NCBI GenBank assembly: GCA_964106645.2
Contig: OZ067043.1
Length of the DNA stretch: 64,000 bases
Source: Podarcis pityusensis
Lineage: Eukaryota
Direction: 5' to 3' (one strand)
The notes beneath the pieces were generated by a model. The model was not told where the DNA came from and searched no databases. It was given only the letters and a program-made list of their open reading frames with translations. Shown here in pieces: positions 2,444 to 11,400 of the stretch (within the stretch, counting starts at the first letter, position 1; each line of letters starts with the position of its first letter). Made by a program: the position numbers and the translations under genes.

Positions 2444-5400
2444 CTAAGGCAAAGGAACATTGCAACCGCTTAAGACAGCATTTCTATCTTTCCCTGTGTT
2501 GGAAGAACAGCCTGTGGCTGAGAAGTGCGAGTTTTGAACGTGTGGGTTCTGAACAAAGCAGGCACTGAATCTAAACCAATTATGAAAGATTTCTTTGTAT
2601 GCTACAAAATGTTGCTGTAGCTCATCCAACCACGCTGTGAAAAAGGGAGCGTAGTGGCAACATTCACACAGAATAAAGAAACTTTGCAGGTGGAAGGAGT
2701 TTCCCTGCCAGGGTCTGTCTCAGCCTGGGGAATGCCCTTTCTCTCCTGAATCCCACACCTAGCTTCTCTCTCCAGGGAGGCCTGAACGGCACCAATGCTG
2801 TCACTGTTTCAGCACCAAGCAAATATAGGTTTGTTTGTTTTTGTTTGGTGCTACCTAGATGCCTAAGAAACAATGATTGAATGTTTTTACACTAATAGTG
2901 TTTTTAATAAGTTGGGTGTGTGTTTTTACAGTATCACTATATATTTTTCTTCTAAACTGCTTCAGAACATTGCTGTGCGAAGTGATTCCTAAGAATGTGC
3001 TGGATCAGGCCAATGGCTCATCTAGTTCAGCGTTACAGCTGCCAACCAGATGCCAGTGGAAAGCCTGCAAGGTGGACATGAGCTCAACAGCACTCTGCCC
3101 ACCTGCAATTCCCAGCAAATGGTATTCAGAGGCACAATGGTCAAACCCACCTCTTGTGTGAGCCGCCTAGTGAAGAAAGGATTCAAGTATTTAACATCGA
3201 GCCACATAAATCCTTTGAGGTCCTGGCGCTTTAAGTAGTGGGCTTCATACTCTTCCTCGGTGAGTTCGGACAAGTGTTCAGATTCAATGGTGTTACCCTG
3301 GAGAGATCAGAGAAGGGAAATGAAACATCAGAATCCCAAACCATTGTTTCCTCGGTCACTTCTTAGCCTTTCCCATTCACATACTTCACTGAAGCCAATC
3401 AATACTCCCGACAGAAAGCAGCAATATAAATAATAACGATCGTTTGGGTAATGAAATGCCAATTTCCAGCAGACCATTTCAAGAATGTGGGTTCAGAGGA
3501 GGCTAAAATTGCCATGGCATTCGTCAGTCCTGTTCTGATACTGCTGATGGTTATGGCTGTGCCAAACACATGGAGAAGGAAAGCAGCAAGCGCACCTGCT
3601 AGGGACCTAGTATAGTATTTATCCAGGAAGGCCGCTTGCCTCTTTCGTGAATGAAGCCTCTAACTGAGCTTTGCCCAGTCTGGATTTGCACGAGTAGTAT
3701 CAAAGTAGATGGATGGTCAAGAAAGCCACTTCCGCCTGCAGAAGGAGGTGGTGTTGTGGGCTTCACGCCCACACCGTGCGCGCGGCGGCTGGCTCTCAGC
3801 CTCCACATGATTGAGGGAATCCCCAGCCGTGTCATCCCCTGAACAGCCAATCAGCTGGCTCAGGGGCGTGGCCTGCCCTATTTAACACAGGCCGGCCGGA
3901 GGGCGAAACCCCCTGAGCCTGAGGTCCATGCACATGCCACTAAACTGTGGCTTAGCACAACATGTAAACTAGGCTTTTAAGTGTCTTCGATGGGAGATAA
4001 TGACGTTGGAGTCACCAGTGTTTTAAGGGCCGTGGGTGCATTCGGATTTTTGAGTGAGTGATGTGGGAGCTACCTGCTATACCTGGTTCTCTCCCCCTGC
4101 CCTGGATCAGCTCCCTGCTCCCCCCTGCACACAAGAGAAAGAAAGCATACATGTGCATGTGTGTGTGAGCGCTCTTTCTCACACACTGCTCACTTTTCAA
4201 CGGATCTGGGTGAAAGTCAGATCAGGTAGAATGAACCTGGGCCTTGAAAAGCACATGGAGATGAAAGAGAAGTGGGGAAAGGACCAGTCTTCCAAATTCC
4301 TGCTTCAGTTCTAGGTGCTTTTCAGGGGAGAACAAGGTAAGCATCCTCAAGCACTGCATGATCAAGTGGGGCTGTGAGTTGGAGTGGAAAGGTGAGTTCA
4401 GAGGCTTTAGGGGCACTAGAGGAAGACTTCAAGGGCATCTCACCCATGGGAACCACATTGGAATGCCCTGTTTGACACAACACCTGGATATGGTGCAACA
4501 GACACGTAAGGCTTTATGTTCCAGTACAACTCATTTTCTCAGTAAAGCACTGGCCTGTTCTGAACACTTTGCTACCTGCTCTGTACATTGCAGAACAACA
4601 GCTTGGGTACAGCCAACTGTTTCACAGTACTTCTGGTTTGGCAAGAGAGTGGACGTAAGCAAACTTTACTCTTTGGGGAACTCTCTCTGCCTTTCTCTGA
4701 ACAGAGCCGTGCATATCCCCATTTTGAACAGCTTGCCAGTGATTTACAGCTGCCGCTTAATGGCGGAGAGGAACACCACTGTCTCCCTGAGTGATGTGTG
4801 ACTCACTATCTATGTGTTATTATCATCCACTTATATGTGACTCAGTCCACCCAGTGCTATCATGACTGCATTTCAGCAGAAATGCTATTTCACTTAAAGG
4901 AAATAACTTGCCATTAAACTTCAAGTTGTGAGTGGTATTACAAACTGGAAAAGGGCTCTGTCAAGCCCAGGATTAAAGGGCAGAGATGTTCCATGCAGAA
5001 CATTCAGGAGGCCATCAACTCCTTGGCCTGAAGGTCTGGCCTTTCCTTTAATTCGCATACAGTGACAGAAGCGGTCAGAGAGTTTGGCGAAAGTGAAGGA
5101 TCCGCCCCGCTTAAGCCTGGAAGGAAAAGGAGCTCACCATTTTTTCTGTCTTGCTGAGGTTAATGTCCTTCTTGTTCTTTCGCCGGGCTTTGGAGTCTTC
5201 AATGTCGATCAGTCTGATTAAGGGCATGGTCCCTCCTCCCAGTAACAAGATGGTGAACAGCACAATGATGATTGTCGTGGTGCCAATGAGCTGCCGCTTC
5301 TCTATCGGCTCCAAGCCCAAATGGAGGCTCAAGGCATATGGGATGGCCCCACGCAAGCCTAGATGAGCAGAGGGAAAGCCCGCAAAATAAGGAATGCAAT

Positions 5401-8400
5401 TTCTTTACCAATAGGCAGGCTTCTTAAGCTACACAAACAATTTGGTTGTTTTGCTTGTCGCTTTTAGATTGGGCACATCCCATGCCCGGCACCCTGGTTT
5501 CATCTACTGCAGCCCACAGACTTTTGACAAGGCTGCATTTGTCATCCCTTGTTACCCTTCACCCTGTTGGGGAAAAGGTTGCAGCTCAGTGGTAACATGT
5601 TTTTGCATGCAGGAGGTCTCGGGTTCAATCCCAGGCATCTCCAGACAGGCCTAGGAGGACCCCTGGCTGAAGCCCTGAGGAGCTGCTGCGAGTCAGTGCA
5701 GACATAACTGATTTACATGGACCATTGGTATAGGACAGCTTGCTATGTTCCTAGTGTCTCCTTCACAAAATGTTGGACATTTGAGTTGCCTTATGCTAAG
5801 GTCACTGGCACATCCAGCCCAGTATTGCCTACTCTGACTGGCAGTAACGCTGCCCGGAGGTCTCTGTTGGGTTTGGAACTTAACAGGTTAAGAAGTTCCC
5901 ATGATGCCTCAACATTCTGACGTCAGCTTTAGAAGCTGGGAGGAGTCTGGGAGGAGTTTCGTTTACTCTGTTCCTCTCTGGTTCTCTGAGGGAAGAGGTC
6001 GCAGTTCGTCATGGCTGCGGTGAGCCCAGGAGATTCCTGGGGAATGTCGGAATAAAGAACTGAAATGGACAAACCTGGTCTCTGTGTGTGTTTGTCTGAA
6101 GCTAAGTGAAGCTACGTGACAGTTTTCGCTGCTGTGTTCAACTCTGCTGAGGCGTGACTGGAGAGCTACTGGAGACGGAGCTGAGTGGCGCAGCTCGGAG
6201 GAAGCGCGCCGGGCATAAAGAGCTAATTGGGGACCGTAAATCAATTAGCGGGGTCACGCCAATAAATCAATCCAACAGGTTATGGGTGCTTAATCACCGA
6301 TCGTAAAAACTGTCACAGGAACGCTTTGAGGCTGCCGGAATGCGTTTGAAGTCTGCGGTCTGAAGCAGAGACGCTGGCAGGAGTTTTTGCCTGTTGCTAA
6401 GAGGCAAAAGGAGGAGCTGCGGAGCTGAAGAGCAGCTGGAAAATCGTTTCCCGACGGATGGGTGCCGGAGGAGCTTGTAATCTGTGAGTACAGCTTGGGG
6501 CCCCTTGGGAGAACGGAAGACAATGGCAGGCAGCCAGGTCTTGGAGGACATTGCGTTTGAAATGCTCACTCTAAGAAGTTGGGCAAGGGCGTAAAGTCAG
6601 CAAGGGCTGCCTGGGATGTGCTGTGAAGCTTCAGCAGGAGGCCAGAGCCCTGGAGAAAGTATTGAGAAAAGCCTAGAGATGGCTGCAGCCCCTGTTCCTG
6701 ATGTTTTAGCCTCAAGGAGTGCTAGTGAGCAGATCGGGGGGGCGAAGGATTCCAAAGGCAAGTGTAAAGGCTTGTCCACTGTGCGTGCTGGAGTGGAATG
6801 TCAACAAAGCAGGTTCCCAGAAAGCCGCAGTGGGAGCCAGGCCAGAGGGGGCGGAGCTGGCAAGGAGTGCTTTTCCGGAAGAAGGAGAAGGAGGCCGGCT
6901 GGGAGGAGCCCCGGGCAGTGTTTTTCCACTGGAGTTCGTCGTTGCTGCCCATGGAGAGCGGAGACAGCTGGGCAGGAAGGTCCCAAGGTCAACCAGCTGA
7001 GTTCCCATGGGAATCAGTCTCGGAGAGGAGGCCAGCGTGGGAACGCAAGGGAAAGACGTGGCTCAGACGCTGGGGAGGGTTGTTTTCTTATCACTGCTTC
7101 TATGGCAACTGTGAAGAACAACTCCAGCCAGGACACGGTGACGCGCTGGGTTTTGAATACTGCTGTTGGTCAGCACCTGCTAAGCGAGCCTGCTGGCGAA
7201 ATGCGGAACTGCAGGGCTGTTTCAACAGGACACAACTGTGATGTTAGCAGACGGAATGAGAAAGTCGGTTTCTGCTGTGGCTAACATGTCTTTTTCTCCT
7301 TTACAGGAGGAGCAAGAGGTCTACGTTGTGCCGGGACTGAATTGTTGTTTGTTATCTGTATCAGCTCTAATGAAGCAGGGATACAAAATTAGCTTTGAAA
7401 ATGACACCTGTTCCATTTTCAGAGGGGGGAAACAAGTGGCCAACGTGAAAAGGGGGCAGAACAATCTCTTTGTTCTGGAGTCACCTCTGGAGGGTGGTGG
7501 GAATGCTGGAAAAGCACAGGCGCAGTGTGCTAAGGTTCCCAGTCATGTGCAAAAGCTGCACAGGTGCACAAAAGGGTACAAACTCCGGAAATGTGGGAGG
7601 TCCCTAGGGTGCAGGGCATGCAAGGGTGCACAGGTACATGGTTTTCCCGGGTTTGGGAGGGTAGCCAAAGAGCCCTTTGAGCTCTTTGAGGCAGGTGGTC
7701 CAAAGGTTCAGGAAATGATCTTCTGTGGATATGATCCTGCAACCAATGGGTGGAAGTTTGCATACCCAGAGGGTGATCAAACCAAGCTGCTGGTCAGTAA
7801 GCAGGCTGAGTTCTGTGAACAGGATGGGTGTTCAAGACTCAGGGATAGTCCTGATTTTCTCTCAGAATGTCTGTCTGATTCTGAGGAGGAAAGGGAGGCA
7901 GGGTTCAGAACCCGGTGATGGGGACCAGGTCCAAGATCAGGGTTCAGGGCAGGTCTGGGCATCTCCAAAGGTTGTGAAAGGAGTGTCCAGGTGTGAGGCT
8001 TCATCTCCGGTTAGCGTAATGGAGAAAGCTCACAAACAGGGTGTCAAGTCAGAGGGGGAAGGATCTGACGGAGAAGACACAACTGCTGGCCCAAATGGGT
8101 CAGTAGGGTATCAGGTCACAAGTGCGTGGAAAAGTGTCGCACAGTGTGATTCTGGGAGTGTTGAAGGGGTTCAACAGGTGCCTGGGAAAGATGCCGGGAA
8201 GGGGCACAAGGCAAAGGGAAAGGTGTTGAACTCAAAAAGGTCTTGTCAGAATGGTTCGGCAAGAGGGGGTGTTGGGTTTGGAACTTAACAGGTTAAGAAG
8301 TTCCCATGATGCCTCAACATTCTGACGTCAGCTTTAGAAGCTGGGAGGAGTCTGGGAGGAGTTTCGTTTACTCTGTTCCTCTCTGGTTCTCTGAGGGAAG

Positions 8401-11400
8401 AGGTCGCAGTTCGTCATGGCTGCGGTGAGCCCAGGAGATTCCTGGGGAATGTCGGAATAAAGAACTGAAATGGACAAACCTGGTCTCTGTGTGTGTTTGT
8501 CTGAAGCTAAGTGAAGCTACGTGACAGTTTTCGCTGCTGTGTTCAACTCTGCTGAGGCGTGACTGGAGAGCTACTGGAGACGGAGCTGAGTGGCGCAGCT
8601 CGGAGGAAGCGCGCCGGGCATAAAGAGCTAATTGGGGACCGTAAATCAATTAGCGGGGTCACGCCAATAAATCAATCCAACAGTCTCCACCTGGAGGTTT
8701 TTCCCCATCACCTCCTACCTGGCTCCATAAACACAGTATCCACACAGCAACCTTCTACCTGGCCATTCCACTGGAGATGCCTCAGCCAGAGAACTTCGGC
8801 ATGCAAAACTTGTGCTTTGCTGCAGGCTGATGCAGGGCAGTTAAATTAGTAGCATACAAAAATAAATAAATGGAAACTGTAAACTCCTCAGGGCAGGGAC
8901 CTGTCTTTTTGCTTGCATTGCTCCATAAACGTTGATCAGTAGTACAATATGAAGAAATAACTAGGATTTTTTTTAAAAAAAGTATCAAGTAAGCCAAAAT
9001 ACTTACCACTAAACCACATGATGAACATCATTTTTGGGGTGATCTTGTGATCGCGGAAGAAATTGAGCAGGTAGGAGAGGGGGAAAATATTGACAGCTCT
9101 GCCAAAAAGCACAAGCACCTGTCAAAAGGCAAGCAAATTAGCCACTGGGCAAGGGGAAGCATTCTTTCAGGCACATCAGAGCAGTCCAAATTGTAAGTGG
9201 CTAGTGAGGACGCTCCTCAGATCAGCTGATAATCAAGAGTCACAAATAAGTCACTATACACCAGCTCTTCTGCCAGGGGTTAGTATCCAAGGAAGTGATT
9301 CCACCGGAAAAAGGATTTCTATTTTGCACAACTCCCCCTTCCTCTCCTGTCCCTGCGTATGCCCCATGCCCTCCCCAAATCTGCTCAAAAGGGTCAGGGG
9401 GAAACACAGAACAGATTTAGGGGCTGTGCGGGAAGAGGAAGAATTGCATCCATGGAAATAAGAAGCTCACTGCCCCAAATAAAGGGATAATGAAAACTAT
9501 TCCTTTAAAAAGGGGAGTGGGGTGTAGCTCATGATATAGGTTACAATAATGTGTGTGACGTATGTAAAATATTAGATGTATTTTTTTTTATTTCTCAGTT
9601 ATACCCCATCAAAAGACAACCTTCCCATATGGTCCTAAAAGTAGGTATATATATTCTTGTGTATTTGCGCGCGTACACACACAAACTTATCTGTGGAACG
9701 GTCTCCCTTGGGAGGTGGTGGACTCTCCTTCCTTGGAGGTTTTTAAGCAGAGTTTGGATGGCCATCTGTCATGGATGCTTTAGCTGAGATTCCTGCATGG
9801 CAGGGGGTTAGACTAGATGACCCCGGGGTCCCTTCCAACTCTACAATTCGAAGATCATTCATATGCTCCTCCCCCTGGCAATTCCCTGTTCAACAGTGAC
9901 AGAATAACACTCCCTGCTAGCAGCAGTCCCTGCTGTAGACTATTCTCTTTAGACTGCCCACTGAAAGCGGGGAGGGGAATCCATCATTCTGACACTCTTA
10001 ACTATTTCTGACTATGAGACAGTGCAAGCAGCCAATAATCTCCACGTTTACTTGGAAATAAAGCAGCTCTAAATAAAGAGAGACACTTCCAAGGAAATAT
10101 GCAAGGGAGCAGAGTGCATATTAAGTAATCACGACTATATATTGTCAGAGCTTAGGCAAGAGCTATGGGTTTTTTGCACAACCACTGCATAACAACATGT
10201 CGTGTTCTGAGATGTGCACCTTTTGTTTCGAAAGAGAAGCAAATGCCTAGCTCCCAAGGCCTCCAGAGAGCGAAATGGGCAGAGGCAGTACCTCTCCAAG
10301 GTAGCCATCACTGCTTTGTCGTGCTTGTGAGCTTATTATGGAGGCACCCAGCAGGCCAATGCTGGAAACAAGATGCGGGACTGGACAAGTCACAATGTCT
10401 TGCCCTTGCTGGGTGCCTGATTGCAGGGGATTTGTGCAAGGCAGGAATGTCCAAGGCTGTTCCAAGGTCCAATTCCAGGCAAGTTATTTGCTCCAATAAG
10501 GGCTCGGGGGGAAAAGCAAACCAAGGGGCAGCGCAAGGTCCATGCCCCAGGAAGCCGAGGGTCAATGAAGGGCTCAGGAAAAAGGCAAACTGAGGGGCTG
10601 TTCAGGTAAGCAGTGCGTCAAGATCAGGGACAAGATATAGTGCTAGTAGCAATGTGCTGTTCACGCTGCTCTCCCAGCCTCGTAGTGAGGCTCTTAACCC
10701 AGAGCCCCACCCTGGCTCCTGCTGCAGCCTCTTAGAGGTTGGTAAAAGAGCAGCGGCGTGTGGTGAATTTTTCCGTAGGGGAACAGTTAGGGCCAGAGGT
10801 ATCAGCTTGTGAGGGTAGAAGACATAGCTCCATCCAAATCCTCCCCCCTCCCCGAAGAGTAAATTGCAGGTTTCTGTTAGTCTGCTAAATTCTATTCTGA
10901 CAAATAGCAGTTCCATAAACTGAGGGGCCTTCAGATTATGGAACTCCCGCTCCACGGAAGTGAGGGCGGCCTCGACCAAACAAACCTTTAAGCGGACTTC
11001 AAAAACCTGTTCGTCAATCTGATCTATTCACAGAGCTCTGCTAACTCAAGAGCACAGCCACTAAAAGTCGATGAGATTTCATTAGGGCGGACATTTCTAA
11101 ATTATAAGAAAATCCCACAACTCCAGAGTGTGATTGTTAGTTTACTTAACTTTCTCAATCACCCCGTTCTTGAGACCTGCATTTCTGAACTTTTCACATA
11201 TACCCAGATAAATATACTACAAAGAGAATATATGCCAAAATCACAGACCCTTGAGAATTTTGACCAAGATAGAACTTTTGAAAAGCTCTGTCTCAGGCTT
11301 TTGACATGGTGCCCCTAAGTGCAGTCACCAAGAATGCTTTGCCATTATTCCTATTTTGCAAAAGAGAACCTTTTTTAAAAAACCAAAACAAAACACAATG

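Follow-up and report, generated by a model that had tools for sequence, protein, structure and literature searches.

How does a retrotransposon that encodes no reverse transcriptase (RT) come to be copied recently, and how is its copying primed? These questions are raised by a long terminal repeat (LTR) element at positions 5860-8687 of a 64,000-nucleotide (nt) stretch of Podarcis pityusensis DNA (contig OZ067043.1 of assembly GCA_964106645.2), called here the window. The original prediction, made from the letters of the window, described a very young non-autonomous Copia element with pristine cis-acting sequences around a wrecked gag-pol. Our analysis indicates that it is very probably a recent insertion of a non-autonomous Ty1/copia element, devoid of RT, RNase H and an integrase core, that was copied in trans in particles of related Copia elements. 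RT-less sister families that retain coding sequence, mosaic copies and a tRNA copy in the LTR go beyond that prediction.

A probably recent insertion of a non-autonomous family

The LTRs (5865-6277 and 8270-8682), in which no mismatch had been seen, are identical at 413 of 413 bases on exact alignment and have TG...CA termini. The intact 5-base-pair (bp) target-site duplication (TSD), GTCTC, the primer-binding site (PBS) flush against the 5′ LTR and the polypurine tract (PPT) were likewise where they had been placed (Table 1). With these features the element falls in the Ty1/copia class, as it does by the order protease, integrase, RT: matches to intact elements carrying RVT_2 are colinear and end at the RT start.

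The 1992-bp interior is as damaged as had been described. Reading frames break near 7230 and 7900, WVLNTA stands at the place of the protease motif (7147-7164), there is no Gag zinc knuckle (it is present in 23 of 121 family copies), about 540 nt of the integrase core are deleted at 7683-7689 compared with 3.3-kb copies of the same LTR family, and homology to the intact Copia polyproteins of the genome ends just before RT. Pfam matched only one of seven interior frames, with SH3_retrovirus (E 4e-4, below the cut-off) and Pol_BBD (E 0.05). The intact Gag-Pol with RT and RNase H that defines an autonomous Copia element was found neither here nor in the other delimited copies of the family.

Exact pattern counts across the genome gave at least 245 PPT/LTR junctions and 490 LTR starts. 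Since this ratio is 2.0, copies mostly have both LTRs, with few solo LTRs among them. After 6 loci without a delimited LTR pair and 2 without a PPT match were dropped, we had 121 delimited copies; three of these (L124, L133 and L165) were left out of alignments. All 121 have interiors of 1.4-2.2 kb without RT, and no family locus has an RT of its own, the two RT matches belonging to neighbouring elements. The closest other full-length copy was 96% identical to the window copy (40 of 639 candidates scored). Thus, counting copies with the same internal deletions, the check that had been proposed, revealed many young copies, as expected of a non-autonomous LTR family mobilised in trans. Since all 121 copies lack RT and the window copy has 0 private substitutions (family median 2), the coding decay is older than the insertion, which had also been foreseen.

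A perfect 5-bp TSD flanks 99 of the 121 copies, and 62 of those 99 have identical LTR pairs. With the last 15 nt excluded, the 99 pairs carry 32 substitutions in 39,031 bp. At a substitution rate of 1-3 x 10^-9 per site per year, this corresponds to a mean family age of 0.14-0.4 million years. By itself, one identical LTR pair bounds age only loosely: the 95% upper bound is 0.73% divergence, or less than 1.2-3.6 million years at the same rate.

LTRs differ in their last 15 nt in 17 of the 99 copies with perfect TSDs (1.2 expected; about 3 are end-calling artefacts), often through the same change in the 3′ LTR; such copies include L083, L092, L110, L131, L136, L140, L142, L153, L154, L169 and L174. 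Rather than reflecting age, these differences likely arise as reverse transcription begins or come from a second RNA.

An insertion polymorphism had been raised as a possibility, with reads over the empty site as the check. We used four of 20 listed public sequencing runs, two labelled organism A, one B and one C. In all four, the flank contig match stops exactly at 5864, with further letters past this position (1034 in X15, 184 in X1, 654 in X2 and 32 in X3). The four runs therefore appear to carry the empty site, as read from contig coordinates at the 5′ junction, and the insertion is likely very recent and still polymorphic. Against this weighs that the empty site is a matter of contig coordinates at one junction.

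At the protein level, comparison among copies depicts the family as near-neutral, with coding constraint lost. The Gag ATG frame ends before 100 amino acids in 85 of the 86 copies that have this ATG, the protease D-S-G is retained in 1 of 121, the ratio of nonsynonymous to synonymous polymorphism (pN/pS) is 0.79-0.83 with three reference frames, and the ratio of nonsynonymous to synonymous substitution rates (dN/dS) for integrase is 1.08 between two members of the window LTR family, L221 and L225. One result points the other way: stops are under-represented (pStop/pS 0.33-0.39), a small hint of frame retention. A functional protein in the family was considered and rejected: the long frames, of up to 676 amino acids, do not begin at the Gag ATG, and pN/pS is close to 0.8.

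RT-less sister families retain Gag, protease and integrase

A 105-nt integrase piece in two family copies led us to the 3.3-kb copies with the same LTR, which have a full integrase core, and to families of 3.4-3.8 kb with other LTRs, whose Gag-protease-integrase frames span 913-935 amino acids and contain the protease D-S-G and the integrase D,D,E. All RT-less families end at the same point before RT, and their integrases form one clade with support of 100/100 (14 of 33 tree rows; L061, L078, L080, L222, L227-229, L231 and L234 are partly missing from trees or rate pairs). Among the 150 nearest integrase matches, 79 have stop-free frames of 900-979 amino acids (hand count), and none has a frame of 1000 or more. 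At least 150 RT-less Copia copies occur in several LTR families (L221-L240 and genome matches), and gag types differ between RT-less families on a common protease-integrase scaffold.

Integrase dN/dS between sister families was 0.23-0.52, against 0.30-0.42 within the autonomous family D (see below). Inside the window LTR family the value is 1.08. On these figures, selection on protein in the sisters likely outlasted the loss of RT, and it lapsed here. The RT-less families are thus monophyletic, and none of their branches is more reduced than the window family, which suggests layered parasitism, with coding RT-less sisters and the non-coding window family beneath them.

Alternatively, the low dN/dS may have been earned in autonomous ancestors, if an RT-deleted 3′ end recombined onto the Gag-protease-integrase of lost or unsampled relatives and the RT-less proteins are idle. 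The clade does swap modules, as its different gag types attest, and its integrase motifs near the catalytic Glu depart from those of autonomous families, on a long stem branch (0.4). We nevertheless regard this history as less likely: no frame of 1000 amino acids or more turned up among the 150 nearest integrase matches, each of the 14 best matches that the integrase patch has outside the family ends ahead of RT, and the frame is still open in 79 of 150 young copies. Continued selection on the sister proteins remains our preferred explanation.

Candidate helpers belong to other Copia families

An active autonomous Copia helper had been predicted. Intact Copia families are present: a genome search with RVT_2 gave 2321 candidates, many of the 150 scored lying in frames of 1345-1498 amino acids, and intact elements with such frames show 98.5-100% LTR identity. 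LTR pairs were found in 19 of 20 fetched RT-bearing loci, which fall into five families, A-E. However, none of these 19 autonomous elements has the window-family LTR. An autonomous parent with the same LTR was sought, and rejected, among 40 extra PPT-junction or related loci, the integrase-patch matches and 150 integrase matches. As no autonomous element with this LTR was found, the helper would be a different family.

The PPT and LTR start resemble those of family B (84-89% over 37-38 nt), as do the U3 (unique 3′) terminus of the LTR and two fixed 35-nt gag patches; the U5 (unique 5′) terminus and the proteins are like those of family D. An 8-nt PBS core is common to the window family and B, D and E, and no LTR termini are identical among them. 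From the likeness to B in U3 and gag and to D in U5 and protein, the RT donor is likely B, D or E. Several points weigh against naming a donor. No long recent patch ties any helper to the family, the matches being 35-38 nt to B and 28-32 nt to D; sister and autonomous families share only one 35-nt match; and just 19 of the 2321 RT candidates were examined.

Contig C19 (38 Mb), possibly a W-like chromosome, carries many of the 150 scored RT matches. At L116, L170 and L019, two family copies lie 5 kb apart in the same orientation, and in this set two other copies adjoin or sit inside family-D-like Copia sequence.

A same-sense copy of the likely primer tRNA accompanies the short PBS

The PBS had been assigned to the type that is primed by half of an initiator methionine tRNA (tRNAiMet), and when it is compared with a tRNA-Met(CAT) gene of the same genome, its 9 nt pair perfectly with nt 31-39. 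It is thus directed at the 3′ end of the 5′ tRNA half, as in other half-tRNAiMet-primed Copia elements. If the AATAAA at 6051-6056 is the poly(A) signal, two further LTR features would lie in U5. One is a box of 8 nt that can pair with the 5′ end of the tRNA and is likely a second primer-binding site; the other, which lies upstream of the PBS at a distance of 59 nt, is a copy of tRNA nt 1-37 in the same sense. The box occurs in 120 of 121 family LTRs and 36 of 37 LTRs of other families, but in only 9 of 24 elements with a full PBS. The tRNA copy has an alignment score of 40, while the best of 1000 dinucleotide shuffles scored 26; controls with the tRNA 3′ half and with antisense sequence were at chance level against the window LTR.

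Families B, D and E and the RT-less families have the tRNA copy and a PBS of 8-10 nt; in A and C the PBS is 14 nt long and the copy is missing. In two fresh samples of elements with Copia protein downstream, all 17 elements with a short PBS, and none of the 24 with a full PBS, contain the core of the copy (tRNA nt 17-31; null 19/386); 19 of 60 loci, one of which had the core, were left out of this count because they lacked a Copia protein match. RT identity to D is 66-78% in copy-bearing families, against 43-51% in the others, and the copy is kept across families whose RTs differ by up to 34% and whose LTRs are barely alignable. Among 19 distinct cores, 16 have C in place of U27. The copy-bearing families are probably one clade, in which a tRNA copy of single origin has been kept over deep divergence.

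Antisense tRNA-half copies of 23-39 nt are fixed at the PBS of single copies, so the tRNAiMet 5′ half does get copied. They occur in several Copia families (L241, L244, L245, L246, L263, L265, L274 and L146), and at L246 an inverted duplication of fold-back type goes with it. Among the tRNA gene clusters seen at L242:983-2546 and on contig C13 (44.39-44.88 Mb) are several tRNA-Met(CAT) genes, one with a variant D-loop.

We propose that window-family RNA would be packaged together with RNAs of other family members, of RT-less sisters and of an RT-bearing family (B, D or E), and that template switching would make each insertion a new mosaic. Priming would be by the tRNAiMet 5′ half, held through the 8-9-nt PBS and the U5 box. 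As RNA, the same-sense U5 copy could not pair with this primer; its minus-strand DNA complement could fold back on the primer's free nt 1-31. The most likely role of the copy would accordingly be in the new complementary DNA (cDNA), which would capture the free part of the primer. More tentatively, the fold-back may let RNase H trim the primer or may block RT on it, such that plus-strand copying stops after 8-9 nt. We also offer, at about the same tentative level, the larger proposal that a three-part system (8-nt PBS, U5 box and a tRNA copy whose cDNA captures the primer) replaced the 14-nt PBS in a squamate Copia clade, and that within this clade a lineage with its own Gag, protease and integrase parasitises others for RT only and is itself parasitised by the window family.

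Predicted primer:cDNA pairing is consistent with capture: z scores were -3.1 to -8.9 in 25 of 25 short-PBS LTRs and +0.8 to +1.9 in 5 of 5 full-PBS LTRs. Read-through to at least 14 nt of primer was seen in 2 of 121 family copies; of the 24 full-PBS elements with a protein match, 3 show read-through past 14 nt, a weak, family-confounded hint of a difference. Other considerations weigh against these proposals. Since the short-PBS families are probably one clade, the 17 versus 0 amounts to about one evolutionary event, not 41, and that element set had been selected on the U5 box. The wobble bias toward the primer:cDNA model is weak (9/10 versus 2/5 positions, p 0.08), with scoring that favoured the model. 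Ty1 is reported to inherit no tRNA copy, both strands taking their PBS from the element itself (PMC7472051), and on that account a short PBS can arise without primer trimming.

The U5 copy could instead act in cis as folded RNA, through a D-arm-like hairpin or by pairing with the box and PBS, or serve as a decoy that draws a tRNA-binding host protein off the primer. A hairpin is predicted at 6184-6209, the near-constant U27-to-C change would also strengthen cis pairing, the window and sister families retain the CAU anticodon, and the HIV-1 (human immunodeficiency virus type 1) tRNA-like element provides a precedent (PMC5689005). However, predicted folds differ among families, the anticodon is missing from the copies of B and D, and pairing of U5 with the tRNA 3′ half does not exceed shuffles in most families, and we consider a cis-acting fold or decoy less likely. 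A strand swap of U5 with the tRNA 3′ half was rejected on the same pairing scores (z +1.7 to -3.2).

Less likely still, the copy would be a functionless relic of aberrant fold-back synthesis, occasionally refreshed by a template switch onto co-packaged tRNA. Such events do leave traces: L246, of another family, has a full antisense half followed by a fold-back sense copy, L146 switched template at a 12-nt match, and a few family copies are closer to the tRNA, with scores up to 49. Yet the core is present in 17 of 17 short-PBS elements with near-fixed non-tRNA states, which copying from tRNA would erase. Capture of the primer by new cDNA is the role we favour.

An RNA polymerase III promoter in the LTR was rejected, as there is no B box and the tRNA 3′-half score of 16 was equalled in 250 of 1000 shuffles. 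An Rfam scan gave one chance match and no tRNA or Rfam call for the LTR, and a metagenome scan for the tRNA core plus PBS gave 6 loci, none Copia-homologous, which we took as chance.

Family copies are recombinant mosaics

We compared 118 of the at least 245 copies, a set picked by similarity in three ways. The mean difference between interiors is 3.3% and the smallest 1.1%, with no pair within 1%, and LTRs differ between copies by 7.6% on average. Over 77 clean common sites, linkage (r2) is 0.19 at less than 25 bp, a value reached in 0 of 1000 permutations, and 0.01-0.03 farther apart. Four-gamete failures are 0.8-0.88, distances between copies calculated from different interior quarters correlate at -0.03 to 0.22, and large indels occur in all four combinations. 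By these measures the copies are recombinant mosaics, not clones, and linkage is gone beyond about 50 bp. A 433-nt stretch of one copy is 95% like a sister family and 178 nt of another are 98% alike, which suggests shared particles with sister families. Since LTR pairs match within copies but none of 6903 pairs is identical between copies, the mixing most likely takes place at reverse transcription.

Some aspects of the data count against mosaicism on this scale. Choosing about half of the family by similarity can shape linkage, the overall Spearman trend of r2 with distance is non-significant (equalled in 110 of 1000 permutations), and large indels are partially linked.

APOBEC or CpG decay was rejected as a source of the diversity: singletons are of several kinds (A>G 15.5, G>A 12.5 and C>T 11.4 per 100 sites) and show no CpG excess (15/88 CpG sites versus 104/894). 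An old insertion, its LTR identity and mosaics due to gene conversion or assembly collapse, could account for mean differences of 3.3% and 7.6% between copies, but is largely refuted and highly improbable, given that each copy has its own LTR pair, singletons show no CpG excess and all four runs indicate an empty site.

The insertion lies within a Na+/H+ exchanger gene

Na+/H+ exchanger exons on the minus strand on either side place the element in an intron, in antisense orientation. The original prediction named the host gene as SLC9A8; our searches bear out the exchanger family, of which the gene is putatively SLC9A8 (NHE8). High-copy repeats, with high depth in run mapping, lie just upstream at 5574-5745 and 5811-5845, and 5601-5623 has an inverted 23-nt match at 8786-8808. 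An older SINE-like (short interspersed nuclear element) repeat was probably present at or next to the insertion site.

Table 1. Features of the element and flanking exons, in window coordinates
Feature	Position	Strand	Remarks
Host Na+/H+ exchanger exon, downstream of insertion	5138-5359	-	Next exon; Na_H_Exchanger on 11% of one cluster
5′ TSD, GTCTC	5860-5864	+	Flank contigs of 4 runs end match at 5864
5′ LTR	5865-6277	+	413 bp, identical with 3′ LTR
AATAAA, then GT-rich tract	6051-6056	+	Likely poly(A) signal; assignment from sequence
Box complementary to tRNAiMet nt 1-8	6141-6148	+	8 nt; likely second primer-binding site
Same-sense copy of tRNAiMet nt 1-37	6179-6218	+	Core (nt 17-31) at 6200-6214
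Short PBS for tRNAiMet 5′ half	6278-6286	+	Pairs with nt 31-39; flush against 5′ LTR
Gag N-terminus remnant	6523-6594	+	Starts with ATG
Open frame, Gag C-terminal remnant	6595-7284	+	No zinc knuckle; dead protease motif at 7147-7164
Open frame, protease C-half, partial integrase zinc finger, SH3-like segment	7184-7918	+	
Integrase-RT linker	7719-8260	+	Ends at RT/RNase H deletion point common to RT-less clade
PPT	8261-8269	+	
3′ LTR	8270-8682	+	tRNA copy repeated at 8584-8623
3′ TSD, GTCTC	8683-8687	+	
Host Na+/H+ exchanger exon, upstream of insertion in gene sense	9007-9118	-	NHE9 match, E 2e-4

Comparison with known systems

Non-autonomous LTR families, recombination and half-tRNA priming are known already, and the insertion itself is an ordinary young non-autonomous copy. 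The original prediction had Copia present in some lizards; it is present, but abundant rather than occasional, having been reported in 23 of 24 squamate species (PMC11889832). Our genome resembles those with Mtanga-clade Copia in that survey, compared by abundance alone. Since the survey used RT and RNase H, RT-less families fall outside its scope, and the term PBS does not occur in its text. In the literature we found no description of a same-sense primer copy in Copia U5 or of an RT-less vertebrate clade with Gag, protease and integrase, although Repbase, Dfam, supplements or subscription papers could already list such families.

How Copia elements hold and remove half-tRNA primers has been little studied, and the split between full and short PBS within one genome, in families that have all been active recently, makes the question testable. 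If our interpretation is true, a parasite for RT only, with selected Gag, protease and integrase and a non-coding family beneath it, would be a layered vertebrate system that RT-based surveys miss. The family offers hundreds of young, likely polymorphic markers; neither the 3-8% divergence between copies nor the end of the LTR (its last 15 nt) is a sound guide to age.

The window element differs from Cassandra-like terminal-repeat retrotransposons in miniature in having a 2-kb coding remnant and an LTR in which neither the tRNA 3′ half nor a B box was found. The plant elements TR-GAG, RLG_Quinta and RLG_Sabrina keep Gag or Gag and protease, without integrase (PMC11302176, PMC13570524). The RT-less lineages resemble them in lasting as families and retaining coding frames although they are non-autonomous, and in having partners that are often untraceable. 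Unlike the plant elements, the sister families keep Gag, protease and integrase in one frame and lack only RT and RNase H, the host is a vertebrate, and the window family has lost all constraint: the intact, selected Gag of TR-GAG and Quinta is absent from it, while its sisters keep their frames.

In Onsen, young insertions recombine diverged family members, and the mixing was shown at reverse transcription (PMC5668417). Our copies are likewise recombinants, inferred here from standing non-autonomous copies; linkage between sites disappears within about 50 bp, and exchange extends to other families. The tRNA copy recalls the HIV-1 tRNA-like element in placing a mimic of the primer tRNA beside the PBS; that element is a structural anticodon mimic that binds LysRS (PMC5689005), whereas ours is a 37-nt sequence copy of the primer fragment. 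Finally, half-tRNAiMet priming is known from Drosophila copia, yeast Ty5 and plant Osser/Bryco (PMC5371799, PMC6317226). The window element shares with these Ty1/copia elements an LTR-flush PBS directed at the anticodon arm, the order protease, integrase, RT and a 5-bp TSD, and departs from them, as described in these sources, in its PBS of 8-9 nt, its U5 box and its same-sense U5 copy of the primer.

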